From: Psammoneis japonica
Lineage: Eukaryota
Assembly (NCBI GenBank): GCA_008632985.1
Contig: QPGO01000095.1
Location: 1-58,219, forward strand
Direction of reading: 5' to 3'
Length of the DNA: 58,219 nt
The stretch's first letter is position 1. Each line of letters begins with the position of its first letter. This document shows, one piece after another, positions 14,821 through 58,219 of the stretch. The translations under genes were made by a program, and so were the position numbers. The notes below the pieces were generated by a model that searched no databases, was not told where the DNA came from, and saw nothing but the letters and a program-made list of their open reading frames with translations.

Positions 14821-15265
14821 ACGCTTTCTTTGGTAACAAAATGACCGGGAGTTTCTGCTTATTTGTATGCCTAAGAGCTCAACGAGACGTTCGGAGCTGG
14901 AAATGCGATTTGTCACACTTGGAAGTGACAGGCTTGAGAAGTAGATGATACACGAGCCTCGGAGTAGCTCGAGATTGTAATTAGTATTTGGCAGAGGTCA
15001 TGTCTACTGCAAAACTCAATGGTTCAAATTCAAAAGCTCTGCTGCACATAGTACAAAGGGTAATACGGTAGCGCTCAAACATAGCTGTGATATTCCATTG
15101 CCGTTCCTGACCATTCTTTTTTTCTTTATTCCATGCTAATTACCAGGAGTCTCTAATATCATTGGCTTCGATTGTGAACGGTGATTCATACTGATCACTA
15201 GTGGGCTTAGTAGCGGGTGTGCAGGGATATGGAATAGGCACATCATGTGAGCGGGGCAAGGCGCT

Positions 15266-18542: not shown

Positions 18543-19777
18543 TCACACCGCAGCTCGCTCAACATCTGCATCTACACTTGCATTGCTTCCCGCATCACTT
18601 TCCTCCTCCTCTTCCTCGCTCTCCTCATCTCCTCTGTTCTCGTCCGTTGCCTCTTCCTCCTTCTCCTCATCGTCACTTGAAAGCTCTGTCGTTGCCTGTG
18701 TTCTTGCCTCCTCCACCGGCTTTTTCTTTCTTTTTGATCCCTTGCCTCTTTCGTCACTCTTCCTTTTTCTTGCCTTCGCTGTGCCATGTGTTGAACTGCA
18801 TGCCCTCCTCACTCAACCTGTCTTTCTTTACTTCCGCAAGCAGTTCGTTGAATCGCAATGTCCCTGCATCCTTCCACGAGTCTCGTTGCCTTGACGGGTC
18901 CACGCACTTGGGTGTTGGTTCCAACTCTTCCTCATCCTCTTCGTCCAAGCCTCCCCCCGCTCCAACAGTCTTGTCATGACGTGCCTTGTGCTCCCCAACA
19001 CTCCCAGCAGTTTTCCAATGTCAACAGCGCTAGAGCCTCATCGCTCGCTGCAGCCAGACCGGTTGCCTTCGTCTCACCCGACTCAACCTTCCTTCTCCAT
19101 GTCGTGGTGCTCTTCGTGAATTTCAGGATGTTTTTGTAGAGCCAAGCACATGCTTCCTTGTTTTTGCGCTTGTCCTCCACAATCGTTGTCACTGTCTCCT
19201 CCTCCCAAGTTGCCATGAACGGCTCTTCCTCTTCCGCATGATCATTCTTCTTCCTCTTCTTGCCCTCCCTCCCTCCTCCTCTGCCTCTTGATGCCGGCTT
19301 CTTCTGACTGCGCATCTCCTTGGCTTCACTCTCTGTCAACACGACTTCAGCAAATTAAGGTGCAGCAGCGTCAAGTGCAAATGCACTCAACATGCCATGC
19401 ACCACAAAACACTTGCCAGCCGTTGCATTGTTCTTGATCGCCTGAGTGACCGTGCTCCTTTTTGCGTTAATTGCATGCATGACGCACTTCTTTGCCCAGT
19501 CCTCCCACGCTCCCACCCAGTCTCGCTTGCCACAATTGCCACCGGCCATCTTTTTCCTGATGAGCCGTGACACTTTGCCACTGCTTGCCATGTCCGCCTT
19601 GACAAGGAACTTTGCCTTTGGGAAAAGTTCCTTCTGCGCCACCTCTTCCACCTCTCTCTTTGTGGACTGGTGATCCCCAGTGGCTCCCACCTGCACCAAC
19701 GCCGCTGCTGGCCTTGGGCTTGTTGGTTGATCTTCTTTCTTCTTCTTCCTTGCCATTGCCTGTTCCGCTGTTGCCAA
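18543..19777 (-). pseudogene. Element-borne gene with SDEALALLTLEN.W..W and W...G..RFNEL...V..DR motifs; intron 19416-19333
   Basis: The motifs resemble an accessory ORF I recall from stramenopile DNA transposons (unverified). A phase-1 intron with GCAAGT donor and GACAG acceptor joins two ORFs in frame; the gene is disrupted near 18974. Confidence 0.5.
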
Positions 19778-22700
19778 TTGTGGGTGGCTCCATGCCTTGT
19801 GTCCCCAGTCATTCTTGCCGTTGGGAAATTTTCAAACCTCTGATGCCAAAAATCTTGTGCTTCCCACCAATGATTCCTTTTTCTCAAATGCAACACAATG
19901 GAGAATTGACCAAATCTTTTGATGTGCGCACAATTTGTCTAATTCACCACTCCTTGTCATCTTGTGAAAATTTTGAATCCCTGCGAATTCTAGTTCAAAC
20001 CTCTCTCTTTTGCTGCAATGTCAAAATCCACTTCCATGGCACAAACAGCTTGCACAAGCAATTTGCTCAAAACATCATTGTGAAACGTGCACCTGTAAAA
20101 GTCATTTTCACCACAATGAACAAACCCCTCATCTGCTTTAACGACATTCTGGTTTGCTGTTGGTGCCTGAGCACATCCATCCTTTTTGGCGCCAAATCAT
20201 TTTGTCTGGTCCAGTTCGTCATCTCCCTCTAACCTTGCAACTCTCCACCTGATGTGTCACCCGTCGTTGGAACAGTCAGTCATTTTGGTGAAAGCTCTCG
20301 TCTCCGCTCCGACCATTCTCACGAATTCGTTCACTTCAACGCGACGACGTCTCTCCACCCAACGCTTTTCCTCTCTCCTTGTGTGAAAGTTCTCCCGCTC
20401 ACCATCCTCCTTCCTGACAATGTCCAGCATCCATTCATTGACCATCCATGCAGACAACCTGAAGAACTCCATTTGCTCACAGAACCAAAGTCTTTCATGG
20501 TTGTCTCGCACGATGTCATGCTGGAACCACTTCGCCAGTTTTAATGCATCGCACACAATGCCCTTCTTGTCCATTGCCAGTCCGCAAGTGCCTCCCCTCA
20601 CTGATGTTTCTCCCAACGGTCCGCAAGTGCCAGTCTCGTCCATGCCACAGGTCGGCAAGCTGACGCTCGAATGGCGTCTCAATCTCAAAACGTCTCCCCT
20701 GTCAATGACTGGTTTTGTGTCATCACACGCACCCGCTGCAAATTGATCCCTCAGCTCTTTCTCTCCTTCGTTGTGCCAAGCACTGTAGATGCAGCACATC
20801 CTTCCTTGCCTGTCTTGGTGAGTCGCAACGCAGTCCCAACAATCCGGGTGCTGGTGAGCATCAATCCCATGGTTGACGACGCCATTCAACCAGTCCAGGT
20901 TGTCGTGAATTGAGAACATGCCTGTGCTGGCGTGCATGCACTCAATTGCTTCTGTGCTCCAATCACTCACATGTTCGTGCACCCAAACCATGTGGTTGCA
21001 CCTCTGCTTCCACAGTTCCCGCCACTTTTCTTGGATGTCCTCCTCATTCATCATGCAACACAGGTCCATCGCGTCACGGCGCAGGTGCGGGTTAACCGCA
21101 TGTGTGCTGCTCTCAAACTTGATCACAGCTGTGCCCGTTTCATCAGAATGCACCATCCCACCTTGTGGCAAAGATTGCATCAAACGATCCAATTCATCAA
21201 AAGCCGCCTCATGCTCCGATTCCATGATTGGTTGCCTTCCCTCTTTCGTCATGTTTGTCAAAGTTTCAAATCTCCTCCAGCAGTCATTTGGCCAATGCGC
21301 CGTCAAGCGGTCATTTTGTACAACAGCATTCATTGTTGATTGCAACGTTTGTGTCTGTTGCTGCAGTGGGTGTGGGAGCACCCCTCCTGGACTTCTTGCC
21401 CTAAAGCATCACGGCACATCACATCACAACTTACTTTCTCCTTTCCGTAGAAAAACAACCTTTGTAGAACCAACATGAGACGAATCTCACTGAAATCTGC
21501 TCCCCGGTCTGCCCAAGCATCACACGCCACCTTGCGCCATTGTTCCATTAAGTTGGGACAGAACTCGTGGGTGCCGACATTGTCGTTTATCCAGAGAAGC
21601 ACAGCACAGATTTCTTCCACCATTTTGTCAATGAGGTCATTCGCGGTGCCTGCAGACGCAGGGTCTAGAAACACATCGGAAAATTTCTCGTGCGTCAAAT
21701 TGGTGGGGCTGATCCTTCCCACCTGTGGGTCTCCGAACAGCACGCCAAATGTGTTCATCAAATGATCGGCAAAATTCACAAATGGGTCAACACCTTCGCA
21801 ACAAAGGTTGGGAAGATGCACGTCCCCCACACAGTAAAAATGGTGGCATCCGGTGGGATGACCCGCATGGATCGCCAAACGGATGACTCGTTTTGGGTCG
21901 GGCCCAGATCGGCACACAATGTTTTTGAAACGGTGGAGCACTGTGACTGGGGCAGACAAGTGGAAGTCCCTGACTGGGAATGTCGGGAACTTGAGCCGGT
22001 CCATGTGCACCTCAACGCAGGAAGAATCGCCGCCTCCACCAATTGGAACATTGTCCCATGGCCTGTTGTCGTCAAGGGAAAGATGCTTGAACGCACTGCT
22101 GGAATGCGACACATCGGGGTGGGTGGGACCATCGTGTTGCAAGTCCAAGTCTTTAAGTGCAAAATCAAGCTGAGCTTGATTGTGGTGCATGTGAGTGAGC
22201 ACAGGCTTTATGTCGCACTGGTCGTTGCAGCATTCAAAAATGGTGGCTCTGCTGTTGGTGACAACCTTGAAGGACCAGATGTCACCAAAGGCATCCACAA
22301 TGAAAAAACAACCTGCGGCTGTCTTCCTGCAGCGACGCCAGATGCAGTTTTTTTTGTCATGGTGACCATCACAGTCTTGACCCCGGGAAATGCACAATCC
22401 CTGCATGGCAACGTCCTCGCGTTTAAAGAAAAGACAGCCCATCTCCTCGCCCAACTTTTTTTGAGTGCTCCTCATGCCAAAGCGACCAGTCAAATGGTGG
22501 GGGATTGCTCAGTTTCCGCAGCTCTACCTCATTTTCGCAAAGCTGAATCGAGTCGAGGATGTCGGCTGCCATCGCCTTGATTTTGGACGACTCGTTTGCG
22601 TCAAAGTCATCATCGGACTCAAAGACATCAAGTCCGCAAGTGGCCTTTGGTTCAGCCAGTTTGGCAGAACCAGGCGTCTTTGGGTGACATGCTCTCCCTG

Positions 22701-24631
22701 CACAACCGAACTTCATCCTGCGTCCTTCTACGTTTTGAACTGCAACCGGTCCGTCACGATTCAAATCGGACTCTCCCTTCAACAGAACAAACAGAAGAAG
22801 GGCAGGAATGCATGCACGAAGGCACCCGAAGTGCCCTTTGTACAGAGAGCTAGCCTGTCGGGCAACAGAGAGTTCCTCGGAGAAGTGATCAAGGTTGGGA
22901 GGGCACTCGGTTTGAACACAAGATGCGGCGGTGGAATCACATGGAGGTGCATTGTTTGAGAATGTGCGCCAGTTTTCCCGCAAGGACCAGTGTTGGTGGC
23001 TTTGTCAATGATGTGCAGGTGTGACAAATGAGAAGAAACTTCCTTGGTGGTGGTGGGCCGACACTTGGACGGGTCGAAGAGAGCACGGAGTGTGGACTGG
23101 TCCAGCCACGACATGTCGTTGGGGTCGCTGGGAGGAGACGCAACCACGGGAAGATTGGCTGAAACAGAAGGAGGAGAGGAATGAGGTTGGGATGAAGGAC
23201 CTTGGGAGGTGGAAGTGGGTTTTAGGTTTTCCACAATTTCTGAGAGTGACGGAAGGTCGGCAGTGAGAGTGCGGTGTGCCTCCCTGGATGACGGAACATT
23301 GCCAGAAAGCAAAGGAGGTGCTTGTTTGTTGCGAGATGGTGGCTTGGCCTTCTTGTTGGGAACGGTCAAGGAAGGCTCTGGTGGGTCGTGAACAATCATG
23401 GGGTGTGAGAAGAGACACTGAGACAACAGATGCCGGCAAAAAGGTGGAAGGCGCGAGGTGGGGGGGGGGTTGCTTGCCATCGTACAAACAGGTGCCATCT
23501 TTGTGGGTCCTCCTAATTTTGCGTTTGGTTTTGGAGTTGTAGATTCGTTTGTTGTCGTCTTCCATGCAGTCGGCCCTCTGATCACGCATTCTGCAATGGA
23601 GCATTGTGAGCTGCTTGCTGCACCCAGGTTGGATGCCAATTTGATCCTTGGGACAACCCTTCCCAAATTCGTGATTCAACATGGAATTGATTTTTTCTTC
23701 ATGAGCCTCACGGCGTGCAAGGGAATCGCCTTGCATCATCACTGTGTTCTTAATGTCACCGGATTGGTCAGCAAGGAAACCTTGATCTTGTCCACCTGGG
23801 CACCAGGATTGCCAGTGTCGCATGCAACCAGAAAGCTGTTGACAAAGAGGCGCCATTCCTTTTGGGTTTTGACATGACGGAAAATCTTCAAGAACCAACA
23901 GTCCATGTCCTTGGGCTTGCACTGAACGCAACACATGACGATGTCAGTGACAAAACAGGCACTGTGGCAGTCTTGGGCTCAATCGTTGATCAAACTTTGG
24001 AGACTTTTGCACTGTAAAAATCGGAAACAAGGCTTGCCGGATAAAGGATTGTTTGGGTCGTCTCCGGTGATGATCGCACAAACAAATTCCACCATCACCT
24101 GGATGTTGCGGTGGAGAAGCACACGGTTCTGCTGTTCTTTTTCTGTCTCTCCGGATGTTTTGGAGAAATGCAGAGCCTCCTTGAGATTTTTACACCGCAG
24201 GACACATTCACCTTTCACTCGGCGGGATTTCTCAATGGACCAACCACGAGTCATGATGCAGGACCAAATGTCGGGGTGGCCAAGAGTTTTCCTTGCAACA
24301 TCATTGGCGCGGATCACTTCGGCAACACAAGGAACATGGCGCAACTTCGGCTTGTGACAAAGGAAGGGAAGAGCAAGGAATTCTGGAGAGGGGGTCCAAT
24401 TCGTCGACTCCAAAAACTGCTTTTTGGAGGCACGCGTTGCAGTTGTGCTTTTGAGCTTGGGTTCGAATGATTCGAGTCCAAAACTGTTGGTGAAACATTC
24501 CATTTCATCAAAATTGCAGTCCTTGGAAATTTGGAAAGAAGGGTCGGGGTCGACCTCGTCGTGAGACAGGGTAAAGTCATTGGACGCCATGGCCAACAGT
24601 CAGATGCCGATTCACGTAGAATGCACAGGAA

Positions 24632-24688
24632 TCACAACAGTGCACCCTCTCATCAAATGCCATTTGAGGAGAGGGTGCACTGTTGTGA
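24632..24688. repeat. Near-perfect 28-bp inverted repeat (hairpin/cruciform)
   Basis: tcacaacagtgcaccctctc-a-tcaaatg c catttga-g-gagagggtgcactgttgtga: one mismatch, 1-nt spacer. Confidence 0.9.
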
Positions 24689-25139
24689 AATGGGTGGAGT
24701 GTTGCGCATGTAGAAAAGGTGCCAAAATGCAGGTGGGGAGCTGTTGGCTGGAAAACTGGTGGGTGCAGGTGGAAACAATGAGCCAAGCACTCGTGTGGCC
24801 AACTTGGGCGTAAAAGAAATTGCATGGTGACGTGGTGACGCAAGGCTGCGGTGGAGCCATTGAAAATCACCATCAAAGTTGACGTTTCCATGAATGTGTG
24901 AAAATTTAATCAACAGAAAATGCATTGTTCAACAACAAATGAGATGTTGACAGTGTTTGGCAAATTTAATTCAAAACAAAATGGCGACAATTACAGACAT
25001 AAAAAGGCAACACCAAATTCAAATTGACTGCAACATTTGAAATTGAATTTGACTGACAACACCATGCTTTTGTCAAATTAAATGTTCCAAAATTTCCAAA
25101 GGAAAGTGAACAACACCACATTGCGGCCTCTGATGCTCG

Positions 25140-25995
25140 CAGGTCATCAAAATGCCATGCAGCAGATTGTGCTGCCAGAGTTTGTCAAATTTGCCAATGT
25201 GTGCAGGAAATCAGACCAACTGATGTTCTTAAAATTGTGCATGGTGCTGGATGCTCCACAGTGCTTTGTCAAAAAGGTGTCTTTCACTGGATGCAAAATG
25301 CACTCCTCTGCAACTGGCCTGTGTTTCACCTGATCACCCGGGTGTGTGGCAAGAGAGGATGACAGCACCAGCCGGATGGAGAGAGAACACATTGACAGCA
25401 AATTGAAAGAAAACACAGCTCAATCAACAGCAAATCAGACATTCTATTCACCTGTTGAACTCATCCAAGCCAAAGCTGAGCATCTGTCATTCCAAGAGGG
25501 TGAATCTAACACACAGTGTTGTGGGCCCCATTTGATGCACGAGTTGAACCAAAATGTGTGAGCTTAAGTGGCAGCTGAAGCAGAGCGTGTCTCACAACAG
25601 TGTAGATTTGTTGTCTTTTGCAATTGCATGCTCAGAGATCGTCCATGAATGACAACACTGGAAATTTTAAAGAGATGAATCAGCCACACTGTGAAGATTG
25701 CATTTCAGATTATCATGTCTTATCTCACTTTGAACGAGCTGGACTTCTTTGCGGAAAAAGGTTGTTGCTTCCACCACCAATAAGGCTTTGACTTTTACAA
25801 AACCAACTGTGTGAACGCCTTCTTTGGAACGAAAATGAAATAGAGTTTCTGCTCATTTGTGCAGCAGGCCTATGAAGTCAACGAGACGTTCGGAACTGGA
25901 AATGTAATTTATCACACTTGGAGTGACATGCTTAAGTAGATTGTATCCGAGCCTCGGAAGTAGCTCCAGATTTGAATTGGTACTTGGCAGCGGTC
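25140..25995 (+). pseudogene. Decayed 3' fragment of the SAM methyltransferase gene (copy 3), including 3' flank
   Basis: Aligns to about 14180-14998 (NAMQQIVLPEFVKF versus DAMQRIVLPELVKF; QAKAEHLSFQEGE versus QAKAEDLPFQEGE) and to the 3' UTR of copy 1. It has stops and indels, and the 5' part is replaced by the TpA-poor element. Confidence 0.85.
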
Positions 25996-29982: not shown

Positions 29983-31625
29983 ATGGCAAAGTTGAGGATA
30001 GTGGCAATCCCATTCATGCTTACCATTCCAGGGTCGCTGTCCTTTGTCCCGGCTCATAATGTTAAGATGAGGCAGGGTTCATTTCTTCCTTCGACACTGG
30101 CATCCACAGCTAGGTTCGATCTAGAGAAAGCAATCCACGAGGAACCGATCGAGGTCTGGAGAGCCTTTCAACGAGATGAAGATGGCTTCGAATCTACGGC
30201 GACGTTACACCCAGAGAATGCAAGACAAGACGTTTCATCGCAAACTCCTGCTGAAAAAGAAGACGTAAAATTTGAGTGCGACGAATCAGTCCAGTTCTGG
30301 CGAGACTTTCAGCGAGACGGCTTCCAATCTGCAGATTCTAACCTTCGAGAAATTATGAGAATCACAAGAGATTTTATGCAGTCGGGTCCAGACGGCTTGG
30401 ATTATTGGTTGGTGAGCAGGAGAATGAGGGTGCAACTTGTGTTTTTGCGCAATTCGCTCTCTTACACACATGCTCTTTTTTGCTTCGATGCTTTATACTT
30501 TGTTCATAGCGTCACATTGGTCGCATAGGTTACTTTTTCGTTAATGCTATTCTCGGGATTCTGGCCTCGAGCCTTGCACAACGCTTCGAGGGAAGCGCAA
30601 CCGCAAAAAATCCATTTCGAGAATTGGATATATCAATCGTATCGGAAACCGTTTTGGAATCCTCGCTTTGTTTCGAACAAGACTATAAGCGAATCAAAAA
30701 GGGACTCTATCCGAAACCTTGGGACATGTATTACAACACTCGGCAAGCAAGTCCTATTTACGCTGCCACTCAGACGAGTCGATTCATCAAGGAAGCCATT
30801 GCTACCCATCAGCGACGAGTCCATGGCACCAGCAAAGACAAGGCGATTCACCTCTCTAGCGACGAAAAGTCATCATTTGCCTATCCTGAGTATTATCAGA
30901 CTGCCTTTCACTATCAAACCAATGGATGGATGTCAGAACGGTCTGCCAATGTCTACGAAACATCAACGGAAACCCTATTCGTAGGTCGGCAAGATGCCAT
31001 GCAGCGGATTGCGCTACCAGAGTTGGTCAAATTTACCAAGGAACGCAAGAAGTCACTCGACAGACCTGTCAACATTCTTGAAATCGCATGCGGCACCGGA
31101 CGCTTCATGACGTTTTGTCGAGATTCTCTTCCACTGGATACGAAATACACCGCAATTGACCTGTCGCCTTATTATCTAGATATGGCTCGAGAAAATGATG
31201 CCAACTGGAGAACATGTCGTCAACAACTCGAAAGAAAACGGCACGAAAGCGGAGTAGACATTCCAGAAGCTGCAATTCTCCAAGCCAAAGCGGAGGATTT
31301 GCCATTTCAGGAGGGTGAATTTGATGCAGTGGTATGCAACTACTTGTTTCACGAGTTGCCACGAGCGATTCGAGCTCAAGTGGCATCCGAAGCAGCACGT
31401 GTCACTCGACTGGGTGGATTGGTTGTCTTTTGCGATTCCACCCAACTTGGTGATCGTCCCGTTTTTGATGATAGGGTGGGCCGCTTTACAGAGATGAACG
31501 AACCGTTCTATGTTGATTACATTTCGGATGTCGTGTTTGATCACTTTGAACGAGCTGGACTTGAATGCGGAACAAAGATGGTGGCTTCACTTTCCAAATC
31601 ATTGACTTTCACAAAGCCATCTTGA
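29983..31625 (+). CDS. Class I SAM-dependent methyltransferase, plastid-targeted (copy 2, intact; intron 30412-30509)
   Basis: Paralogue of 13229-14820 with the same intron position. GSLS-FVP presequence; ILEIACGTGRF and YLFHELP; spliced frame is continuous. Confidence 0.9.
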
Positions 31626-36787: not shown

Positions 36788-37099
36788 GAGAACAAAACGG
36801 AAAGAAATTAACTAAGATATGTGTAATGCAGATAGTCAGTGATTGTCATGACTCATTGCGATGGATGAGCGATGCCAACGAATGCAACTACATTCTTTAT
36901 TACCGGTATTCCCCTTCGCGTCCGTCGTTTTCGAAAAATTGAAGTGATTTTTTGCCTCCGACAATGTACGTCAGTCACGATGTGAGTTTGTCTCCGACTA
37001 TTCAGAAAGGGATTGCCGCATCCGAGCCACAACCGGCACAAGCCGGAAAGACCGCAGAAGCAAGGAGACCTCTAAAAAATTTCAATTCAAGTTTCAAAG

Positions 37100-38750
37100 T
37101 TGGGGTTTAATTGATGGCATGTGCAGGTACGCATTGAAGTCAAGCAGACTCTTGAAGGGAGGAAACAAAATGGTGAAAAGGTGAAAGCACAGCGTGCCTC
37201 AAACCGGTTTGTGAGAGAAAATCATGTGTGCCAACGGCTTGAAGGATTTTTTTGTGCTTCTTTGGGTTGAAAGCAGGCAAAGTTGAGCAGTGTGTCGCAC
37301 AACATGTGTCTGGCCATGCATCTCCTGATGTCATGTCTGTGAGAATTCATTTGGGTCTCCCTTGGCACTCGGGCTCACACTTGATGCAAGCACCACAAAC
37401 TCATTCGTGTGACCCTTGACACAACCGGCAAGAGCAAACTCATTCAGGTCATCATTCATTTCTGCACACTGTTTTCATTGGCTGAAAGCTGCAGAGCTGT
37501 TGGCAGTTCTGCTTCCATGAGAATGCTGACACTGCAAAAAATCCTCTTTTGGATGATGAGACATGTCACCCTTGACACTCGGTTTCATTGGGGTGAGTTC
37601 ATTCAAGCCACGTGTCACCCTTGACACTCGGCTTCATGCAGGTGTAAATTTCATTTGGGTCATCACTTGTTTCCACACACTTTGCTCACAAAATTTGCCC
37701 TTTGCAAACATTCATTTGCTTGTCATCAAAACATGTTGCACAGCAATCTCACAATTGCGGAGCTGTTGGCATTTCTGCTCCCCACACAAATGCTGACAAT
37801 GCAAGTGATGCTCTCTGTTGGATGATGAAAACATCAATGCAACTGCAACAAGGGCTCTTAACAGCAGTTTCCACCATTGCATTGAATGCATCCGCCTTGT
37901 GTTTGTCTCCTTTTTGGACAAGGAATCACATGGCGGAAATGCGTCTGGCAAGCTGATTGTTGTTAGTTGACTTCAGATGCATGCAAAATGATGATCAGAT
38001 CACAGCACATTAAGATGTTCTGTGTTTTATGAAGCCAGCGAGGCCTGTTCTTGTGGAACAATTGAAAGCCAAAAATGCATGTGTTTCAGAACAAGACCCA
38101 TTTGTTTGCTGTGTGGTGCTGGGTTGAGCATGAAACTCTTTGACCTGCCACCTCAAATTGGAAACTCAACTTTGCACAACAAAATTGACGAGCCAATTGC
38201 CTGATGACAGCTCATTTTGTCATTCTTTTTGCACACACGTGCACAACTTCTGACAAAAATGTCATTGCACTTGAGCCCCAATTTTTCTCTTGCATCTTTT
38301 TTGCTTTTGTCCATGCAAATCATGCTGAGATGACCTGCAGATGACATTGGAGTCTGGTGCTTCAAATGACCACATCATCACATCATCATTTGCATCTCAA
38401 GTGTGCTGGCGCACAAACTTGTTTGCTGTGTCCCTTCAACTTTGACATGATGCTCTCCAAACATCTGCCAGAGCAGGAATCAGATTTCACTGGAGTCATT
38501 TTTTATTGTGGGCATCTGTCCACCCCCCACTGCCGGCACATGCTTTTGGCATGCAAATGATTCCCATGTGAAGATCTCACAATTGACCAATCCAAAACAA
38601 AAAAAATTTGCTCAAACACAGAAGCAACACATTGGTGGCACACTTGGGCAAGAAACTTCATCAGAAGAGGACAGAAAATTGACAAGCTGTGAAGGAGGTG
38701 TTGGAGTTTGAGAAGTCAGTGGGATCACTCCGAGGGTGGCTTGGAGTCGA
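37100..38750. mobile_element. Degenerate repeat/TE-like block, TpA- and CpG-depleted
   Basis: TA and CG scarce; the short motif (g)tcacccttgacac recurs at about 37410, 37565 and 37614; broken ORFs only. Confidence 0.55.
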
Positions 38751-39214
38751 GGGGGTGGCGGGACAGAGGACGAGGAAGTGTCGGCACGAGTTGCTGCAGA
38801 AGAAGGCTGGACTGGTTGATGGCAGAGAAAATTGAGGAGCCAGTCAAAGATGAGGTGCCACGTCCAAGAAGCTCATCCCGGGCACTGCTGAGGCGAGCCT
38901 TGGTAAGTTGATTGGGGACTGGTGTGATGGGGCAGTCCTGCTGCGAATTCTGAAGCGAAAATGCCGATTTAGTCGTGTTTGTCGCTCAGAAATTCTTGGA
39001 GCCTCACAGATACTGTAGATTTCCACGCGCGCAAATACTGGTACAGCACAAGCACGTGCTTCTCGTTGGGTGCATCTTCATCACTTGCTCCATTCGAGTT
39101 TCATCTCTGATGAGAGGCAGCCAGCGAATGTAACGACACTTCATCCTTGCGCAGAATCGACAGAAACGAAAAGCCCACAAAGGCGAAACTAGAGTATCGT
39201 TTTCCAAAAAAAAA

Positions 39215-42200
39215 ATGGAGCAGTCGTCGTCAAGTTACAGCAGCAGCATCGACCTGGCAGCGGATTGGTTCGTCGCTTTGCCACAACGTGAGCAGGAGGA
39301 CATTCGTCGCTTTCAAGAAAATGATCCAACATTGACGGTGCTTGATCTTCGCAACCGTTCCATTGGAGACGATGCTGCTGTGGCAATTGGAAAAACGCTA
39401 GAAACAAACAGAACATTGACGAAGCTTGTTCTCAACAACAATTCCATTGGAGACAAGGGTGCCACGGCCATTGGAAAAGCACTAGAATATAATAAAACAT
39501 TGGCGAAGCTTGTTCTCTGTAACAATTCCATTGGATATGAGGGGGCCGTGGCCATAGGAAAAGGACTAGACAAGAATGCAACATTGGCGGAACTTGATCT
39601 AGACAACAATTCCATTGGAGATAAAGGTGCCTTGGCAATTGGAAAAGCGCTAGAAACAAATAAAACATTGACACAGCTTTGTCTCGGCGGCAATTCCATC
39701 GGAGACGAGGGTGCTACGGCCATTGGAAAAGCGCTGGAAACAAATAAAACATTGACGTCGAATCTCCGTTACCTGAACATGCGCGAAAATGACATTACAA
39801 GACTTCCACGCTCCTTTATCAAACTTGAGAGAACGTGCGAATATTTTGATGTGGACGGTAATCCGCTGTTGGAACCCCCGCTCGAGATTGCCAAACAGGG
39901 TCTCCAGGCGACTGCTCGTTACTTTGAAGTCGTGGATAAAGGGGAGGCAACCGCATCCAGACAGCTCAAGATGGTGCTCGTGGGGGACGGGGAAGCAGGA
40001 AAGACGAGCCTACGGAATGCCCTTGCCGGCCGTTTCCCGGCGCTCGTGGAAGGTGAGAATGTAAGGACAATCTATCTTGATGTGGAACCTGTGCGAATAC
40101 ATGCACCCGAAGGATATAGCGATGATCCAATAACGCTAATGGTATATGACTGCGGTGGTCAACAGGACTATGCCGTAGGGCAGGCACCATTCATGACAGC
40201 GTCGTCACTTTTTTTTCTTGTCGTGCCGGTGGATAAGGCGTGCGACGATTTCTATGAAGAGGCAGTGCGACGATTTCTTGTTTTACTACAGGCAAGGGCG
40301 CCGGGTGCTGTGGTGCAACTTGTCTTATCTAAGGTTGACCTTGTGCCAGACGAGTGGGAACCAAAGCAATGGCTCGAGGAAAGAGTGCACTGGCTCAAGG
40401 ATAAAGTCCAAGGGCAGCTTGAAGCATGGCGTGATGCCACCGCCGCTCGACAAAGAGAGGAAGTTACTCTTTACGATCGTGTCGTTCCAGAGGATTCAAC
40501 AAAGAAAAAGAAACCACCGCTGCTCCAGATTCTACCCGCTGTCCTAGGAGTATCCGTAACGAGTCGCAGCGTCATTGCACGCTCGCAGGAACAAGTGAGC
40601 AACACCATCTTTAGGCACACGCAGGACCATGCGGAGCCGAGGTTGTCGAGTGTCGGTGTGCTAATCCCAAAGTCATGGCAAGAGCTGTGGAAATTCTTCG
40701 GCGCTGTTCTTCAGTGCGGTACAGATGCCGATACGGAAGCGCTTTTCTCCGTAGCAAGTTCGGACGATGCCGTCTCGTTGGGCGAGATTGGGAATATTAA
40801 GACGACTGCAGACGAAGAAATTGAGATACCAGCCAAAGGACCATACTGTTCAGTTGTGAGGCTCAAGTCATTGTGGAATCAATTCCGGTTGCTGTACGTC
40901 CCTTTGGCTGACGACACTACGTTCAATGACGCCCTAGGACTTCTGGAGGCCAGGGGCAGTGTTTTTGTTGATGCTGGGCTGGCGTATTTGCAACCGTCTT
41001 TTTTAACCGACTTGATCAAACCTCTCATAGACCACACTTTGACACTCAAAAAAATAGAATCGTCGGAGTTTGGCAAGGAAGTTGAGACTTTCATCGATAA
41101 TTGCGAGAGTAAGAGGATTGGACTACGACAAGATATAGTGAAGGGACTGACAGATCTGACACAAAGCGGAGAGCTGGATGCGCTGATTCTTCCCTTTTTG
41201 TGGCGTTACTTAAAAATTGATCAAGAAGACTACCAAATGATTCTGCAGATGCTTATTGATTCGGACGTTATATTTTTCTCTTCACCTCATCCGAACTCTT
41301 CTACAAAGAAGAACAGCACTTCTCGAGTCATTACCGATATTATTCCCGTTGTCCTCTTCCGTTTACAGAAAGAAATACCTACAGATTGGGCAGACATGTG
41401 GCCGGAGCGAGTGCCAGATGGCGAAGAGCAACGAGAGTTGCGCTTGAGAATGTACCAGGGCTGCCCAACAAGTCTTGCTGCACATTTTGCTGCTGCAACC
41501 CATGCATATGGGTATTGTGTATGTGCATGGCTGAATGGCGCGATTGTGCTTGACGAGAAAAATCGATGGATCCGGTCCGAGCTCGTTGAAATAGACGGCG
41601 AGCCGTACTTGGCGTTTTCTGTGCGGTATCCGAAGGACGACGTGCTTAGGGAGGAAACTTATGGCCTGTTGAAAGGCGCCGTTAGCTTTGTTCGTGACGA
41701 AGTGACGGGTCGCTTTCCAGGTTTGCAGTATGACGAGGTACTCGCATGTCATAGCTGTCTTAGTGCGGGTAGAGGACAAGATTGCCGGTTATTTGGATGG
41801 TCACAAGTGACAAATCCGGACAGGGGAATAAGTTCGCATTTCTGTCGTATGTGCAGAAAAAACGTCGATTTCGGGTGGTCTGTCGCCACGAACGAGCGAG
41901 TCGAACGCCCTACCACGGCGCATCTTTCAGTTTTGAATGAATTGGAGAAGGAGATGGAGGTGAAGAAGCTGAAGCTCAGTCGGAGTCCATCAGTAGAAAC
42001 CGCACTCGTGGGATACGGTGATGGAATATTGGAGGTGGGTGGGTACGAGATGAAAGCAGGGTTCCTGTCTACCGTCAAGTGGTATCAAGCATCCATCTTT
42101 AGAAATCCAACGATACTTCCAGCACGGATGATCAATGCACGCGCCAACGCAGCTGTAGCTGTCATCAATGGAGTTCTCCATGTGTTTGGCGGCGAAAATA

Positions 42201-43360
42201 AAGACGGCGTGCTCACTTCGTGTGAAAAACTCGACCTAGAGGCGGCCTTTACATCCCTTTCCCCACAACACGCGGGAACTGATCACCGAGTTCATACTGA
42301 AAGTGAAAATTTCGATCTGCAAGCAACCCAAGAATCGGGCTTTACCTTTCTGGCTGCACCACTTCCCGCACACCTTCGAGGCATGACAGCCGTGCGTTAC
42401 AAGGAATCGGTGCTGTTGGTTGGAGGAAGGATCAATCCTCCAAATCTGAGAATATTGGAGTATGTCGCCGGTTCCTTTCGGTGGGTCGTTGGAGCTATCT
42501 TTCAACTGGGACGTATGAACCCCCTTGTCCAAATTCGACGTAGCCTTCTCTACGTTGCCGGCGGTGGCCAGCCTGGAATTGAAGCTTTTGACTTGGAGAA
42601 CCAACGCATGGCGGGACCAGTACAACTCTGGGATCGAGTCATTTATTCTTTGGAACAATCCCTACTTGCTGTGATTGCTTGGGATGGAGAGGGAAATAGT
42701 TTTGAATTACCGGAGACCATTGTTTCCATTAACAACCAGGCGTGGCACATTGAATTTCGAGCTGTACGGATGGGAATCAATCGGCTGTTCACGACCATGC
42801 AGACTGAAAATGGCGTCAAGGAGGTTGGTCCCCTCAGACGTCCGTTGGATTTTCCCGTTCGCCGGAGAAATCGACGTAGAAAACCTCTAGTATTCTTGTG
42901 TCACCATGGAGAGGACTCGAAAAGACAGATTTGTCAGCCAACTGATTGGTTTCTGCGTAGATACGGCATCGACTGTTTTCTCGATAGCCGTTCTCTGTCT
43001 CCGTGGCAGGACGGACCAAGAGATGCCACTGTCATCAACGCGGCCTACTGCTGTACTGATGCGCTTGTACTTTTGTCTCCAAACTTTCGGAAAACGAGAT
43101 ACCCCGTACAGGAACTCAACACGTTCGCTGTCCGTTGGAACCAGGAGAACCTCAACCTTTTCCTGGCTCTTTGGCGCATCGAGAATCTTGATGGGTACAA
43201 TGAAAATTTGGAACAAAGTATTTGGTTACCATCTGCCCAGCATGATGCAGATCAATACATGGTTTCTGTGTTGTGGCCCCATCTCGCGGAAGAGTTCGAG
43301 TTGGAGATTCCTGAGGGCATCTCTTTTGAACAGTTGCTTGTGGAGTATCGGGATGGCTGA
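39215..43360 (+). CDS. Roco protein: LRR - ROC GTPase - COR - Zn ribbon - Kelch repeats - TIR
   Basis: Intact 1381-aa ORF. Five 28-aa RI-type LRRs; P-loop GDGEAGKTSL, G3 YDCGGQ, G4 SKVD; COR-like LQPSFLTDLIKPLI; CHSC...CRMC; Kelch LHVFGG/LLVGG/LYVAGG; TIR VFLCHHGED...CFLD...VLLSPNF...YPVQEL. Confidence 0.9.
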   Translation: MEQSSSSYSSSIDLAADWFVALPQREQEDIRRFQENDPTLTVLDLRNRSIGDDAAVAIGKTLETNRTLTKLVLNNNSIGDKGATAIGKALEYNKTLAKLVLCNNSIGYEGAVAIGKGLDKNATLAELDLDNNSIGDKGALAIGKALETNKTLTQLCLGGNSIGDEGATAIGKALETNKTLTSNLRYLNMRENDITRLPRSFIKLERTCEYFDVDGNPLLEPPLEIAKQGLQATARYFEVVDKGEATASRQLKMVLVGDGEAGKTSLRNALAGRFPALVEGENVRTIYLDVEPVRIHAPEGYSDDPITLMVYDCGGQQDYAVGQAPFMTASSLFFLVVPVDKACDDFYEEAVRRFLVLLQARAPGAVVQLVLSKVDLVPDEWEPKQWLEERVHWLKDKVQGQLEAWRDATAARQREEVTLYDRVVPEDSTKKKKPPLLQILPAVLGVSVTSRSVIARSQEQVSNTIFRHTQDHAEPRLSSVGVLIPKSWQELWKFFGAVLQCGTDADTEALFSVASSDDAVSLGEIGNIKTTADEEIEIPAKGPYCSVVRLKSLWNQFRLLYVPLADDTTFNDALGLLEARGSVFVDAGLAYLQPSFLTDLIKPLIDHTLTLKKIESSEFGKEVETFIDNCESKRIGLRQDIVKGLTDLTQSGELDALILPFLWRYLKIDQEDYQMILQMLIDSDVIFFSSPHPNSSTKKNSTSRVITDIIPVVLFRLQKEIPTDWADMWPERVPDGEEQRELRLRMYQGCPTSLAAHFAAATHAYGYCVCAWLNGAIVLDEKNRWIRSELVEIDGEPYLAFSVRYPKDDVLREETYGLLKGAVSFVRDEVTGRFPGLQYDEVLACHSCLSAGRGQDCRLFGWSQVTNPDRGISSHFCRMCRKNVDFGWSVATNERVERPTTAHLSVLNELEKEMEVKKLKLSRSPSVETALVGYGDGILEVGGYEMKAGFLSTVKWYQASIFRNPTILPARMINARANAAVAVINGVLHVFGGENKDGVLTSCEKLDLEAAFTSLSPQHAGTDHRVHTESENFDLQATQESGFTFLAAPLPAHLRGMTAVRYKESVLLVGGRINPPNLRILEYVAGSFRWVVGAIFQLGRMNPLVQIRRSLLYVAGGGQPGIEAFDLENQRMAGPVQLWDRVIYSLEQSLLAVIAWDGEGNSFELPETIVSINNQAWHIEFRAVRMGINRLFTTMQTENGVKEVGPLRRPLDFPVRRRNRRRKPLVFLCHHGEDSKRQICQPTDWFLRRYGIDCFLDSRSLSPWQDGPRDATVINAAYCCTDALVLLSPNFRKTRYPVQELNTFAVRWNQENLNLFLALWRIENLDGYNENLEQSIWLPSAQHDADQYMVSVLWPHLAEEFELEIPEGISFEQLLVEYRDG
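39329..39757 (+). repeat. Tandem 84-bp repeats encoding the LRRs
   Basis: acattg...aattccattgga...attggaaaag recurs every 84 bp, five times. Confidence 0.85.
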
Positions 43361-43675: not shown

Positions 43676-44591
43676 TTACACTCGAAAAGCCAAGATTTCG
43701 GCAGTAATCTTCTGAAAAATTTCACCAATTCGTCCAATTTCTTGTGCGTGGTAAAATCTTGATGATTGGCCTCCAGCATTGGACAAGGCCTGAAGGTTGC
43801 GCATGGCGGTGCTTCCTAGACGCACACCAATAAAGACAAAGTTCAGAATTCCTCCCAATTGCTCGTTCAAGAGGCGCAAATACATCTGTGCATCCTGCAA
43901 AGAGCACGAGGATGTTGTGTCTTCACCATCTGTAAGCAGGACGAACCAAAAGCTGGCCTGATTCAAAAGGCTGGCGTTACCCTCAGATAGACCCTCGATG
44001 ACTTTCAAGATCACCAATGACATTGCAATAACGGTGTCATACAGGGCAGTGCCTCCATGAGGGGAGATTTGTCGCATCGCATTCTGAATGACACGGCGAT
44101 TGTTGGGATTCAGAGGTACCATGGGCTGAGAGTATAGCTCGAACCACCGCTCTCCAAAGGCTGTGACCTTGACGAATGATGAGTCCGGTAAAGATCGAGA
44201 ACGTGACACGCCCCGCTGGCGGCAGCTGCCATTAGGCTCTGATGGTTGTACACGCAGCTCATACTGGCACTATTGTCGAGACTCAAGAACACTATCGGAA
44301 TACGTTCTCGAAGTCGAAGATGTACTCCAGCTAGACTTGCGGCCTGTGGAGAGGCTCAGAGTTAGAATGTCGGTTCTTCAGGCTGTGACATTTAAGGCAA
44401 AATTCTACTTACGCCATTTCCGTCGCCTGCAACGTTGACTTGTCCAACGTTTGCTTCTTGTGCACCGTTCCAATCAGAGTCAGACGGTGCGTGCAATCCA
44501 GCGGCATTTGCACTCGGACCACCGCCTGGTGTCGTGGTTGCGGGGAACGGTGAGCGTTTTGATTCACTGGAACGCTTTGCTCGCAACCCAT
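43676..44591 (-). CDS. von Willebrand factor A (vWA) domain protein with N-myristoylation/palmitoylation motif (intron 44412-44344; two frameshifts)
   Basis: Starts MGCEQS. MIDAS motif VFLSLDNSASMS, GGTALYD and LLTDGED. GTAAGT...CACAG intron. Confidence 0.8.
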
Positions 44592-45099
44592 TGCTTGTTC
44601 TTTCAATTTTTTAATGTATCCAATACACGCCGAAGCTGCTCACGTTGTAGGATTAAAGAGACACTAGTCGTAATTCGTAAGGAAGAGAGTTTAATGGAGT
44701 GAAACTTTTTATGAGAATTTGATGGCACGACTCGAGATCGCAAAGTGAAGATGCAATGAGACTGTGAAAGATGCGGGTACGCGGCTCGAATGATCAATCA
44801 CAGCTGGAAAAAATCCGCGATTCATTTCATTCGTGAATGACCATCATTGATTGATTGAACTGTCTTGATAAGAAAGGCACGAACATCTCTCTATGATAAA
44901 TAGGAGGTGAATGCCCCTTTCTTCTTTCGCTCGCATCATCTTCAATGTGCAGTAGATCACGAATGACTCCGTACATAATGTGATGCTCTGTGCGCGAATG
45001 ATCAGCTGACACCTGCCTCATCCGCGATTCATTCGGTTCGTGGATGACCAGCGACATAAGTAAGAAGGTGAATGACACTTTCTTCTGTTGCATTTTACA

Positions 45100-47200
45100 T
45101 GCGTGCACATGTCCGACCGACGAGACATCAGCACAAACAAACCTCATTTCGTTCACTCTTCTCCTCCAGGCGCAAGGAAACAGTCTCAATGCCATGCACA
45201 GGTGCTGCACAATGAATGGGAGGCATCTTTGATGCAGAGCACACAAACATGGCTGCTTCATTGACATCAATCAAACCACAAAAAGTCAAAATGAAAAAAA
45301 ATTGCACACACAAAAATGGGGTGCAGTTCATCCCACACTCTTTGGCTGGTTCTTGGAGCTTTGCTGTTGCCGCAACCTGTCACAGGAACAGAAAAGGCCT
45401 GTTCCAGCTCCGGGTGTCCTGCGCAATGCACGCGATCCATCGCTGGCCCATTTTTGCATTTGTGGCACAATTTCCTCCTTCAAAATCGGTTTTTTTCCAA
45501 ATCGAAGGGTGCGCGCGGTGCACAAAACTTTTGCTTTTTTGTGTGCACTGGCCTTTCAATTTTTGAAACAATTGAATTTGAAGAAGTTCAGTGTGCCAAA
45601 CTGCACAGAAAATTGAGCTCTCACATGATGGACTGTGAATCACCTGGGGCTGGAACAGGCCAAAAGCCAACAGCTCACACGCTTCTTTCCTTGGCGAGCA
45701 CATGATGGAGCAGCCCTCCTCTCCCTCCTCCTGTCTGCCTCTTGTGCCTCTCAAGACAATGGTGCTGGACCCTGAAACACCCACAAAACACAGGCTGGCT
45801 TGGCCCCAACAACCACCAATTTCCATCAACTTTGGATCTTCCAAAAAGATCCCTTCAATGAGCTCCAGCTCTGGGCAGGACCTTGCACTGATGCTGGACT
45901 GTGGTGCAAAAGTTTTTTGTCACATGTGCCATGTGTCAAGCACACATGTGTTTTTGCATGTGCCCTTCTCCCAAATTGCTCCACACTCCCTGTTTTGTGA
46001 AGCCAGGGCCTTTTTGTTCCATCCACTTGCAGAAAAAAATTGCTGGGCGTGTTCTTCAGTGCATGTGAAAAATGCTCTGGCAAGCTGAAAATGATGCACT
46101 CCAAGAGTGAAAAAGGAGGTGTGATTGCAAAATTGCCTCTTTTTTCCATTGGCGACAACCAACACATTCATTGCTCAACAACTTTGCTGCGGAGCGTGCA
46201 CACAAAATTCTGCACACAAGTGTTGCACAAAGCCTCACCCAGGGCTTGAATGTGCCCTCTTTCTTCAACTCAACAGCCCCCTTGAGCAAAGCCAAAAACT
46301 CCATTGGTCTCATTTTCCAGCACATGTTTCATGTGGAAGAGCTTTTTTTGGGGGGGGGGGGTTCATCCCCACATTTGCCCTGGAATCACAATGGCATTTG
46401 AACAAGGCCATTCACAGTGTGCTTGTTTTTGAGTGCAAAAATTGTTCATGTTCACACCTGGTTGCACACAAGAACAAGAGCATCAGCAGGCACTGCAATT
46501 GAAGCACAATGATGATGGAAACATCAACATGTTTCTCCAAAATGCAATGGTCTGTCCAGCCACAAACATTTGGTGTGTGTGTGACCTTTGACAAACAACA
46601 AACACAAAACAGATGAGAGTTGGCAGATGAACCATGTCTGTCACAGACTTGTGGTTTGATGTTTTTGCAACAGTGAAGCATGATGAAATTCAGGGAAAAC
46701 AGCACAAATCATGAGCCATTTGGCCAAATTTGAGCTGCAAAAGCAGCAAAGAATGACCCCCCTCAAAGTGAGCCCATGTGCCTTGATTTGTGCCCAGTCT
46801 GTTTGACGTGTGCACTTGGGCAGGCTGCACACAAAACAAGGCCCCTGCAGAGCTTGCGCCTTGAAAATTGACATTGTGTGCTCTCTTCTGGGGTTCTTTT
46901 TCTTGCACTCCAAGCTGCTTGCTCCTTGAATGACAGCAGCAGTGCAGGGGGGGGGGGGGGGGTGCAGAGGTGGCTGTGCAAGAGACTTTGAGCATGAGAT
47001 CCCTCTGGCTCCTCTTTTGTTTGTTCGTTCGTTCGAGAGAGACAGCACGGTGGCTTGAGTTCAAATTGAATCACAAATGCCATCCTTTTGTCCTTGCAGA
47101 GATGATGAGTGCACATTCAGCGAGACACAGCAGTTCAACAAAGCGTGCAATCGGCGAATGAAATCGGAGCTGAGAGGACACACGCCCGCCAAAGGTCTTG
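45100..47200. mobile_element. Degenerate repeat/TE-like block, TpA- and CpG-depleted, with poly-G tracts
   Basis: TA and CG nearly absent; G runs at about 46350 and 46947; broken ORFs only. Confidence 0.55.
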
Positions 47201-55799: not shown

Positions 55800-58219
55800 C
55801 AGTGACCATGTTGAACTTCCTGCTGAGTTGCAAGACAAGCAGTGAGCAACATCCTCGGTTTTTAGCACATGTCGTGTCTCTCGGTGGCTTCAGATTCTGG
55901 CTTCAAATGGCAGCCACCTCTCCAGTGTGCCTGCACTTTGCCAGTGCTCATCAGCATGGCAAAGTTGCCAACAGCCCTGTGAGCAGCAGCCCTGATTCCT
56001 GCAGAAAAAAGCACCCAGACATGCTGCTGTAGAAGTCGTGGCTTGCAGCAACAACAAAAACAAACGCAAGGGTGAGCCATCTTTTTGCAGCAAAAAGGAA
56101 GGAGTGTCCATGACGTGTTCCAGCCGTGCGTGAATGAAATCGTGCACAAAAACGACATTTTCCACGCAGAGCCACATTTTCGTGTGGTCGCTAACTTGCA
56201 AACAAACTTTCGAGTCCAAAAAAACATTTTTGTCAATTTTCGAATGTTTTGCAACACTGACAAGAGTCACGTCAGTGTTGCAAAACAGCCCGTTTCGTTG
56301 CATTGCCACTTTTTCGTTGCCTGAGTTGCATCGCAAGTCAACGGCTTTCTTTTGATCGAGTCGTTTTTATCTTTCTTTGAAAGAATGGACATGAAAATTA
56401 AAAACCGTTAATGCTTGTTCTCAGTTCCCTAATGTGTGAATGATTGTGCAGTTTGCAGATCAACACACAACATGCAAGCGCACTGGATGCCGCCGAAGGA
56501 TCGTTTTCGTTTTTCTCTTGAAGAATCCCACAACCACATGTACAAAGCACAGCCTTGCCATGGGACAAGAAGGTCCCGATGACACCCCTTTTGCAGTGAT
56601 TGATGCACTTTCAGTCGGCGCCTCACACTGTTTTGTTGTGAGGACTGTGTGCAGTGCTGCGCTCGCCACGGTTCATCCTCCACAGTTGCATCAGTTGATG
56701 GGCTCTATTTCTCACTTCTGTTTTCTTCTGTTTTCTGTTTCATGCCATCGATGCAAAAAGTAAGAACAGTCGTTGAGCATTTGCTTTTGCTGTTCCATTC
56801 ATTGCTTGTGCTGTCCTTGGTTCACACAGGAATGCCAAAACAGTGTGCAGGTGGCACATTCAGGGGCGTTTGGCGGTTTTGATGGGCTTGATCTATTCTC
56901 ACCCGTCGGTTCTCAGCATGTTCCATCCGCGGTGCCTGCAGGTGAGAACAGTCGTTGAGCATTTGCTTGTTCTCTTCCATTCATTGCTTGTGCTGTCCTT
57001 GGCTCACACAGGAATGCCAAAATAGTTTGCAGGTTTTACATTCAGGGGCTTTTGGCGGTTTTGACAGGCTTGATCTATTCTCACCCGTCGGTTCTCAGTG
57101 TGTTCCATCCGCGGTTCCTGCGGGTAAGAACAGTCGTTGAGCATTTGCTTTTGCTCTCCCACAATTGCTTGTGCTGTCCTTGGTTTGTACAGGAATGCCA
57201 AAGTGGTGTGCAGGTGGTACATTCAGGGGCGTTTGGCGGTTTTGATGGGCTTGATCTATTCTCACCCGTCGGTTCTCAGCATGTTCCATCTGCGGTGCCT
57301 ACGGGTGAGAATTGTCGTTGAGCATTTGCTTGTTCTCTTCCATTCATTGCTTGTGCTCTTTCCATTTCAAGTTCATCACAGAGTGTGAAGGTTGTGACAG
57401 TTGCTTCTAAATTGTTGGTCATGGTTGGACTCCTCGCTTTCGGAGTTACCGGTGCTGCTAGAAAGGCTGAGATTCTCCGCGATGCTGATGCCCTCCTCCT
57501 CGTCATGGTTGGAGTCACTGTTGTCATCATCATCTTCATTGTCTGCCTCTTCATGGTCGACCACTTCCCGGAGCGAAATTTCATCTGAGATTGTCTCGTG
57601 ATCTCGTTTGCTCACGTGTCTTGCACCGAGTCATCTGGCACGTGTTCGATCACAACTTCGTGGGAGCCTTGTTGTGCCATCGTCATCCTCTCGCAATGGA
57701 CCCATTTTTCCTGCTACAACACACTGGAGTCTCACCGTTGTTGTTTGCCCTTTTTCCTCTTGTGCAGGAGGCATTGTGTGCCAACGCTTGGCTCGTGGAA
57801 CTGGGGTCAGGCAAACCCCCTCAACTGCAAGATCTCCTTTTCGAACTCCATCACGATCCTCCTGAACTGTAAAAGGCTCACCCTTCCATTGCAGAACATG
57901 GCAACCATCAGTGGCAGGATCATCTGTCGAGACCGCCCCGCATCCGCCAGGGTGAATCAGGTCCGCCATTGTCTCCGTCATGCCGGCGAGAACACTTGAC
58001 TTCACCACCTCGTCCTCTTCCGCATCATGATCCTTGCCGTCCACCAAGGTGATGATTCGCCAGTCATTGAGAGACCCAAAGAGGGCACAGCAGTGGCAGT
58101 CTGTCGTTGCTGCATGCCTTGGTTGCTCTTCGGGAGGAACTCCAGGAGTCCACGGAAGTCGAAGCTTAGCCATGCATGGTCCACATGCACACGGGATACG
58201 GCGAACAGCGATTTTTCCT
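55800..58219 (-). mobile_element. TpA-depleted transposon-like element (runs off the window end)
   Basis: TA nearly absent. Contains the 182-bp tandem array and a Tyr-free ORF (57631 to the window end; RRIPCACGPC...PWTPG...QPRH) followed by an acidic tail ORF. Confidence 0.6.
56761..57357. repeat. Tandem repeat, ~182-bp unit, about 3.3 copies
   Basis: t(a/g)agaa..gtcgttgagcatttgctt begins at 56761, 56943, 57125 and 57306. Confidence 0.93.

Follow-up and report, generated by a model that had tools for sequence, protein, structure and literature searches.

A Kelch-TIR tail grafted onto one member of a part-swapping LRR-Roco-TIR gene family in the diatom Psammoneis japonica

Bacterial proteins that combine leucine-rich repeats (LRRs), an AP-GTPase and a COR domain carry variable effectors, TIR among them, and number 11 paralogues in Haliscomenobacter according to the section devoted to them by Kaur, Iyer, Burroughs and Aravind (2021, PMC8195603). 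For brown-algal ROCOs, the relevant passages of Zambounis (2012, PMC3341825) report exon-shuffled LRRs and positive selection on the concave face, and those of Teng (2024, PMC11378527) put the number of ROCOs per species at four or fewer for diatoms and other stramenopiles, alveolates and rhizarians, compared with at least 13 loci of one clade in the genome described here. Eukaryotic Rocos with a TIR domain are indicated by the passage on a TPR-ROCO-TIR protein of the red alga Chondrus crispus (PMC11378527), by a figure legend on Trichoplax ROCOs that includes TIR (PMC4104024) and by the Fig. 3 legend of 10.64898/2026.04.20.719644, which lists Roc, COR and LRR and so implies a Roc-COR TIR protein. 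Here we examine a stretch of 58,219 nucleotides (the window) from contig QPGO01000095.1 (C95) of the Psammoneis japonica assembly GCA_008632985.1 (91.4 Mb), in which a single forward-strand open reading frame (ORF; 39,215-43,360) encodes a protein of 1,381 residues with the order LRR, Roc, COR, four-cysteine ribbon, Kelch and TIR. The gene is a chimera: the 5' part of a Roco gene (flank, LRRs, Roc, COR and ribbon) continues into a Kelch-TIR tail, the joint lying where tails are swapped in this family.

Set beside these systems, the family resembles the AP-GTPase counter-invader proteins, as described in the corresponding part of PMC8195603, in its fast-evolving amino-terminal LRRs, Roc-COR core, swappable carboxy-terminal effector and roughly a dozen paralogues per genome; unlike them it has a diatom host, the tails observed all come from one TIR family and there are two exchangeable types of COR-B. 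The named effectors do not include Kelch in section 15 of that paper, whose figure and source data cover at least 24 domains. With the brown-algal LRR-ROCOs of PMC3341825 and PMC11378527, as far as their ROCO passages go, the family shares a stramenopile expansion, local clusters, variable LRR number and concave-face selection, whereas each brown-algal LRR has its own exon and the intact diatom genes are single ORFs with 84-bp repeats; the same passages name no TIR or Kelch tail, and the word 'Kelch' is absent from PMC11378527. The Rocos of Chondrus, Trichoplax and 10.64898/2026.04.20.719644 share Roc-COR and TIR with our gene and come without mention of Kelch, although these legends and short passages do not establish exact architectures. 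Among the integrated domains recorded for wheat nucleotide-binding LRR receptors (NLRs) in PMC7422411 is Kelch, and the gain of a foreign domain by a receptor family member through fusion is likewise as outlined there for plant NLRs with integrated domains; unlike these, the diatom protein has a Roc GTPase rather than NB-ARC, and its Kelch appears to have brought its own TIR, replacing the native tail. The LRR-Roc-COR order and the G motifs are those of the C. tepidum Roco and M. barkeri Roco2 (6hlu, 3dpu, 4wnr) and of LRRK1/2, with the difference from this set that there is no kinase and that the COR region is too divergent for a PDB profile match. Our searches, which most subscription journals lay beyond, found no report of a diatom LRR-Roco-TIR protein, of a Roco-TIR-Kelch combination or of a TIR NADase expansion in diatoms or other stramenopiles. 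What is absent from these searches is the diatom expansion with part-swapping and its single Kelch-TIR graft; the overall design was already known, and on the question whether the architecture is a common one, LRR-Roc-COR-TIR is common in bacteria (the Atlas clusters with Roc, COR and TIR are bacterial), whereas the Kelch-bearing form is single here and has no counterpart that we found. The protein most likely works in the manner proposed for the bacterial proteins with AP-GTPase and TIR and for the brown-algal ROCO candidates.

The graft is visible at the DNA level. Similarity to the paralogues starts about 155 bases 5' of the ATG, and identity to the five closest (type-A) paralogues stays at 81-85% as far as about 41,880; it ends at 41,870-41,890, where a sliding comparison falls from 84-87% to background and the base-level view agrees. 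The 5' flank (39,059-39,214) is common to the Roco paralogues, with blastn identities of 68-85% at loci L035, L037, L039, L042, L045, L051, L052 and L054. Contig C310 carries a TIR-Kelch-TIR frame of 731 codons, and the tail downstream of the joint aligns colinearly with its Kelch and second TIR (26%, 517 columns, E 3e-34). This Kelch-TIR unit also occurs in P0007 (TIR-Kelch-TIR; 46% to the C310 frame and 31% to the window protein) and P0009, both from other sources and colinear with the tail at 31-32%, and is therefore older than the fusion. In a tree of 33 TIRs, the TIRs of six close-clade Rocos and of a helicase-like gene form a 100/97 clade, with the window TIR outside it on a long branch; because the tree gives no supported grouping of the window TIR with the second TIR of C310, the latter gene is taken as a relative of the donor and not as the donor itself. 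Kelch stands between COR and TIR in the window gene only; the clade's 11 other Roco-TIR genes lack it, and all carry a different TIR. The Kelch-less state is likelier to be ancestral, because the divergent C3 paralogue, P0002 and the fragment P0025 run from ribbon to TIR without Kelch. The sequence-only reading had taken Kelch plus TIR as a designed architecture; we find a single-copy graft instead. Neither a transposon end nor any other mechanism behind the graft was identified, and the 2.2 kb upstream has only short matches elsewhere.

The C310 locus (L049, C310:4,600-9,960) has, one after another on the forward strand, two LRR frames, a stretch judged ankyrin-like on visual inspection, and the TIR-Kelch-TIR frame. 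Each frame end is preceded by similar sequence, and the locus is possibly one spliced or alternatively spliced gene. In other sources, the same TIR family is found on NACHT-like (NPHP3_N) plus WD40, WD40 and LRR proteins (P0022, P0043 and P0066, respectively).

A TIR search of the genome gave 28 listed matches out of 32 candidates, and 22 of these matches are strong (E <= 4.5e-17); 20 stretches around the strong matches were examined. Twelve strong TIRs, including that of the window, sit behind Roc-COR or COR; the others are fused to ankyrins, a U-box, a helicase-like domain, Kelch, a second TIR or unassigned regions, and one is a partial copy. A separate Roc search gave 13 loci, 11 of the 12 others being 80-85% identical, and local clusters of three to four pieces lie on C9 and C263. 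In the assembly, the frames of four other Roco-TIR genes are broken and another gene stops at a contig end, as two further Roc loci do before their tails. The breaks may be assembly errors, because both short-read runs show three indels relative to the window contig. All family counts are lower bounds, since a genome search with the Kelch region found only itself and missed the relative on C310.

Several observations on other members of the family belong here. Roco genes are cut near residues 506-509 at both ends of C263 and at the start of C308, and these fragments may be halves of one gene. Three more distant Rocos were seen: L058 (C46:485,200-489,500, reverse strand), with LRR, Roc and COR-A and a TIR in the next frame, L065 (C117), with Roc-COR near a TIR, and L059 (C5), a Roc-trypsin gene. 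At L046, L047, L043 and L050 (C508, C46, C67 and C9), family TIRs adjoin a common unassigned domain, and L046 has DNA blocks of 90-97% identity in common with L044 and L047, a further case of part-swapping. The proteins of L045, L052 and L058, and P0002, begin with Met-Gly-x-x-x-Ser, which we take to be a possible myristoylation signal; the window protein has Glu at position 2.

Exchange of parts runs through the family. In a comparison of 10 genes (C121, C3 and two contig-end fragments were left out), Roc and COR-A are 73-97% alike, with one frame-broken row lower in Roc, and the downstream parts fall into discrete types: COR-B types A and B are about 50% alike between and 73-92% within types, and TIR types 1 and 2 are 57-65% alike between and 79-91% within types. 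All four pairings occur among the nine paralogues (A-1 in two, A-2 in two, B-1 in three and B-2 in two), and the window gene adds A-Kelch-TIR. An 822-base stretch of type-2 TIR also ends the helicase-like gene, at 84% identity. This gene (L044, C183:75,761-79,972, forward strand) is a frame of 1,404 codons with a Schlafen/DEAD-like helicase and the terminal Roco-type TIR cassette, and has a second TIR just upstream.

The LRR array varies in both length and composition. Genes carry from 2 to 11 repeats by a pattern search that misses some, and in a set of 58 distinct repeats taken from 11 genes, 10-13 kinds of residue occur at positions 5, 7, 9 and 10 in a nearly invariant framework. At the concave x positions of LxxLxLxxN (4, 5, 7, 9 and 10), nonsynonymous divergence (dN) was 0.82 and synonymous divergence (dS) 0.26, a ratio of 3.1 that ranged from 2.55 to 3.66 over 60 resamples and was 3.0 without C121, compared with 0.50 for the remaining positions. 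A concave-face dN/dS near 3 reflects an excess of amino-acid change and is a strong hint, not a formal test. Between the genes of C121 and C399, Roc-COR-TIR (about 4 kb) has 4 differences and the LRR part (about 0.6 kb) has 75. Examination of family size and LRR variability, the check proposed with the sequence-only reading, thus gave 12 Roco-TIR genes, 2 to 11 LRRs in each and a concave-face excess, and the immune-receptor interpretation gains from the multi-copy family, the variable repeat number and the concave-face change; the reading as a whole is partly supported.

As that reading had also stated, the frame is uninterrupted, with 1,381 codons from the ATG at 39,215 to the TGA at 43,360 and no internal stop, and in it Pfam places LRR_6, Roc, Kelch_1 and TIR_2 in this order. 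The tandem LRRs were likewise borne out (LRR_6, E 3e-19): five 84-bp (28-residue) repeats of ribonuclease-inhibitor type occupy 39,326-39,745 and are followed by capping LRRs to about residue 225. The proposed Roco module stands for Roc and for COR-B, and for COR-A by position only. The Roc GTPase (39,968-40,633) matches Pfam at residues 252-375 above the cut-off (E 5.5e-8), in PDB it comes closest to Rocos (M. barkeri Roco2, 4wnr, E 1.7e-12; C. tepidum Roco, 3dpu, E 1.4e-10), and G1 (residues 257-265), the switch I Thr285, G3 (312-315) and G4 (372-375) are in register with the prokaryotic Rocos and LRRK1/2, with G1-G4 intact. Pfam gave no match to a STAND ATPase (NB-ARC or NACHT) in the protein, and the switch is Roc. 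The COR region spans 40,634-41,746, its carboxy-terminal half being a COR-B of family type A, which hhalign aligned at residues 709-886 (87.6%, E 3.5e-6) when a profile of seven sequences was compared with three bacterial-type Rocos. The Pfam COR families have no match in this region of the window protein, and Pfam COR-B matches the divergent paralogue only (E 0.003); COR-A was matched by neither Pfam, hhalign nor PDB profile comparison, and is placed behind Roc from its position. A COR-only profile (A5) found nothing in PDB at E <= 10, and the profile of alignment A4, swamped by the LRRs of P0002, yielded nothing on COR. By membership of the family, the protein is a Roco. Between COR and the joint lies a CxxC...CxxC ribbon (41,747-41,854; C845, C848, C877 and C880) that is kept in seven of the eight rows of A4, the last cysteine being gone in one paralogue; the cysteine pattern supports the earlier call of a zinc ribbon as a putative one.

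The Kelch repeats of the sequence-only reading were recovered in part. Kelch_1 matches residues 975-1009 (E 3.9e-4) with 20.3 bits, just above the cut-off of 20.1, and a fold model of residues 911-1202, built from alignment A2 of 39 sequences (one TIR protein, P0144, among them), contains four GG blades with a predicted local distance difference test score (pLDDT) of about 90 and a Foldseek match to Kelch propellers (E 9e-14). These four well-modelled blades lie at 41,990-42,622 (residues 926-1136) and include a loop insertion of 28 residues. They are followed at 42,623-42,880 by the remnant of a last blade, a linker and a pre-TIR 'VGxL' element typical of the TIR family of this genome; here the alignment is poor and the last 66 modelled residues have a pLDDT below 50. 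A single-sequence AlphaFold model of residues 850-1381 was set aside (pLDDT 29).

The terminal domain (42,881-43,357) is a divergent member of the genome-wide TIR family that stops before the last helix of the family. The TIR_2 match (residues 1226-1324, E 4.4e-5) scores 24.4 bits, below the cut-off of 28, and compared alone with PDB the domain has no significant match, the best TIR match having E 0.5. A family profile built without it nevertheless recognizes it at E 1e-55; for the family profile itself, matches to TIR structures from plants and bacteria have E 9e-12 to 2e-10, with the glutamate in register. This residue, Glu1300 (43,112-43,114), lies in YPVQEL (residues 1296-1301), at the catalytic position in helix alpha-C, a column that holds E in 32 of the 33 rows of alignment A3, and the earlier identification of a TIR domain with its glutamate is thereby upheld. 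Diverse eukaryotic TIRs make cyclic ADP-ribose in a Glu-dependent manner, according to the pertinent passage of 10.64898/2026.04.20.719644; the diatom TIR is probably NAD-cleaving. The Atlas matches of the TIR were generic bacterial TIR clusters only (0.88-0.90) and were not counted as a sign of transfer; a further candidate source, 10.1101/2025.10.24.684338, was discarded because TIR there denotes a terminal inverted repeat.

On the reading that we favour, the protein would be a cytosolic, GTP-gated sensor, switch and effector whose Roco-TIR family evolves fast and recombines, and its Kelch would serve as an additional module for binding or as bait; we give this account an even chance. A variable ligand would bind the concave face of the LRRs, and the GTP cycle of Roc would then drive a monomer-dimer change through COR-B, as in the C. 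tepidum Roco, whose GTP cycle changes the dimer state and whose carboxy-terminal COR half is the dimer interface (as summarized in PMC6337361). TIR domains brought together in this way might use Glu1300 to cleave NAD+ to an ADP-ribose signal, or might drain NAD+. The Kelch domain and its TIR would have been acquired as a single unit from a Kelch-TIR gene, and the Kelch would offer a second binding surface or a bait, by likeness to the integrated domains of plant NLRs. The most likely role is recognition of non-self, that is, of pathogens. A bolder and more doubtful proposal is that the family amounts to an NLR-equivalent repertoire built on a GTPase instead of an ATPase switch, recombining at the LRR array, the COR-B type and the TIR tail, in which the window gene would be the integrated-domain member, its Kelch bait mimicking the separate TIR-Kelch-TIR protein, itself targeted by an invader, and triggering NAD+ cleavage. 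The family offers intron-free, easily cloned candidates with a built-in test in the TIR glutamate mutant, and the Kelch chimera illustrates how new receptors are assembled, although it may be a transient product.

A number of facts weigh against the sensor-switch-effector account. The fusion is single-copy, and protein searches of limited sensitivity found no full-length counterpart; a word-limited search with the tail among proteins of 759-2,417 residues returned 0 of 7,407 candidates at E <= 0.01. The concave-face ratio of 3.1 comes from non-independent pairs of recombining repeats, over a set of positions (the LRR convention) that was fixed after the per-position table had been viewed. Relative to three Kelch-TIR homologues, the propeller lacks about 57-70 residues (one blade), and its end does not model. 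The window TIR ranks 31st of 33 by the family profile, deviates at 8 of 44 conserved columns, has lost the last helix and is the only one of 33 rows with Pro instead of Cys three residues before the glutamate (the other 32 have Cys). A conserved glutamate is in any case no guarantee, since IL-1R9, IL-1R10 and TLR2 have it and are inactive, as a passage of 10.64898/2026.04.20.719644 notes. Finally, the differences between the two short-read runs in the tail are all non-synonymous (3 of 3), which is in keeping with weak constraint, small as their number is.

If these features of the TIR mean that it is catalytically weak or dead, the protein could have been kept as a scaffold, bait or brake that pairs through COR-B with type-A paralogues and tunes or triggers their TIRs, as a sensor with helpers. 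The most divergent features do lie in the TIR while Roc-COR is under purifying selection, the type-A COR-B is common to the window gene and five paralogues, and the carboxy-terminal COR half is the surface on which the C. tepidum Roco dimerizes (in the same account, PMC6337361); Glu1300 and 36 of the 44 conserved columns are kept, however, and the second TIR of C310 (10 columns) and P0048 (14 columns) deviate more. We hold this arrangement to be unlikely. The single copy without a counterpart elsewhere, the incomplete propeller and the three non-synonymous differences would also suit a by-product of gene birth and death, an in-frame fusion that arose recently by chance, serves no selected role and is heading for loss, as would the broken frames of 4 of the 12 Roco-TIR genes in the assembly and the contig-end fragment besides. 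These breaks may, however, be assembly errors of the kind that the three indels in both runs reveal in the window contig, and on the branch to the window gene the Roc-COR core (279 codons) has a synonymous difference (pS) of 0.185 and a ratio of non-synonymous to synonymous differences (pN/pS) of 0.26. In simulations of neutral tails, 62, 2 and 0 of 1,000 stayed open at a drift of 0.05, 0.10 and 0.15 per site, so that drift of 0.10-0.15 would almost surely have stopped the tail of 492 open codons, provided that the graft is about as old as the core divergence. A by-product without function is rather improbable.

The family might instead serve non-immune signalling in development, trafficking or mate and self recognition, like plant TORNADO1 or the Dictyostelium Rocos, with the LRR variation reflecting self/non-self or partner recognition. 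Characterized eukaryotic Rocos do act in chemotaxis, division and patterning (in the overview given by PMC4104024), and the neighbouring genes are ordinary enzymes, but lineage-specific expansion, local clusters, tail swapping and a diversifying concave face are the pattern of conflict genes, and we regard this role as improbable to a marked degree. Least credible of all, and very remote, is that the Kelch-TIR tail was joined to the Roco by mis-assembly only. Paralogous Roco cores do break contigs elsewhere (the ends of C263 and C308), but the joint is in frame and is bridged by short-read contigs of both runs (X1 record 8 and X2 record 15), each reaching about 200 bases into the Roco side and showing two to three differences, and mis-assembly is for this reason unlikely; the two runs are of one sample and are not independent biology.

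That the host is a diatom, as the sequence-only reading had it, follows from the 24 of 25 silicon-transporter candidates in the genome that are matches. At C38:226,311-230,342, three silicon-transporter units form one frame of 1,511 codons.

In the rest of the window, sharp-edged TA-poor tracts (observed/expected 0-0.2), often also low in CG, occupy 3,001-4,000, 6,001-8,000, 17,501-25,500, 37,001-39,000, 45,001-47,000 and 56,001-58,219. The Roco gene lies between two of them and is itself untouched; its DNA is normal in both TA and CG, in contrast to the stripped tracts that flank it at about 37,000-39,000 and 45,000-47,000. Downstream, a convergent gene on the reverse strand (43,676-44,269) has a weak VWA match (E 0.015), and because both runs show one-base insertions relative to the contig at 44,194 and 44,477, its frame is probably longer than assembled. 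A methyltransferase gene occurs three times in the window (13,348-14,999, 25,137-25,995 and 30,192-31,622), the copies being about 66-77% alike.

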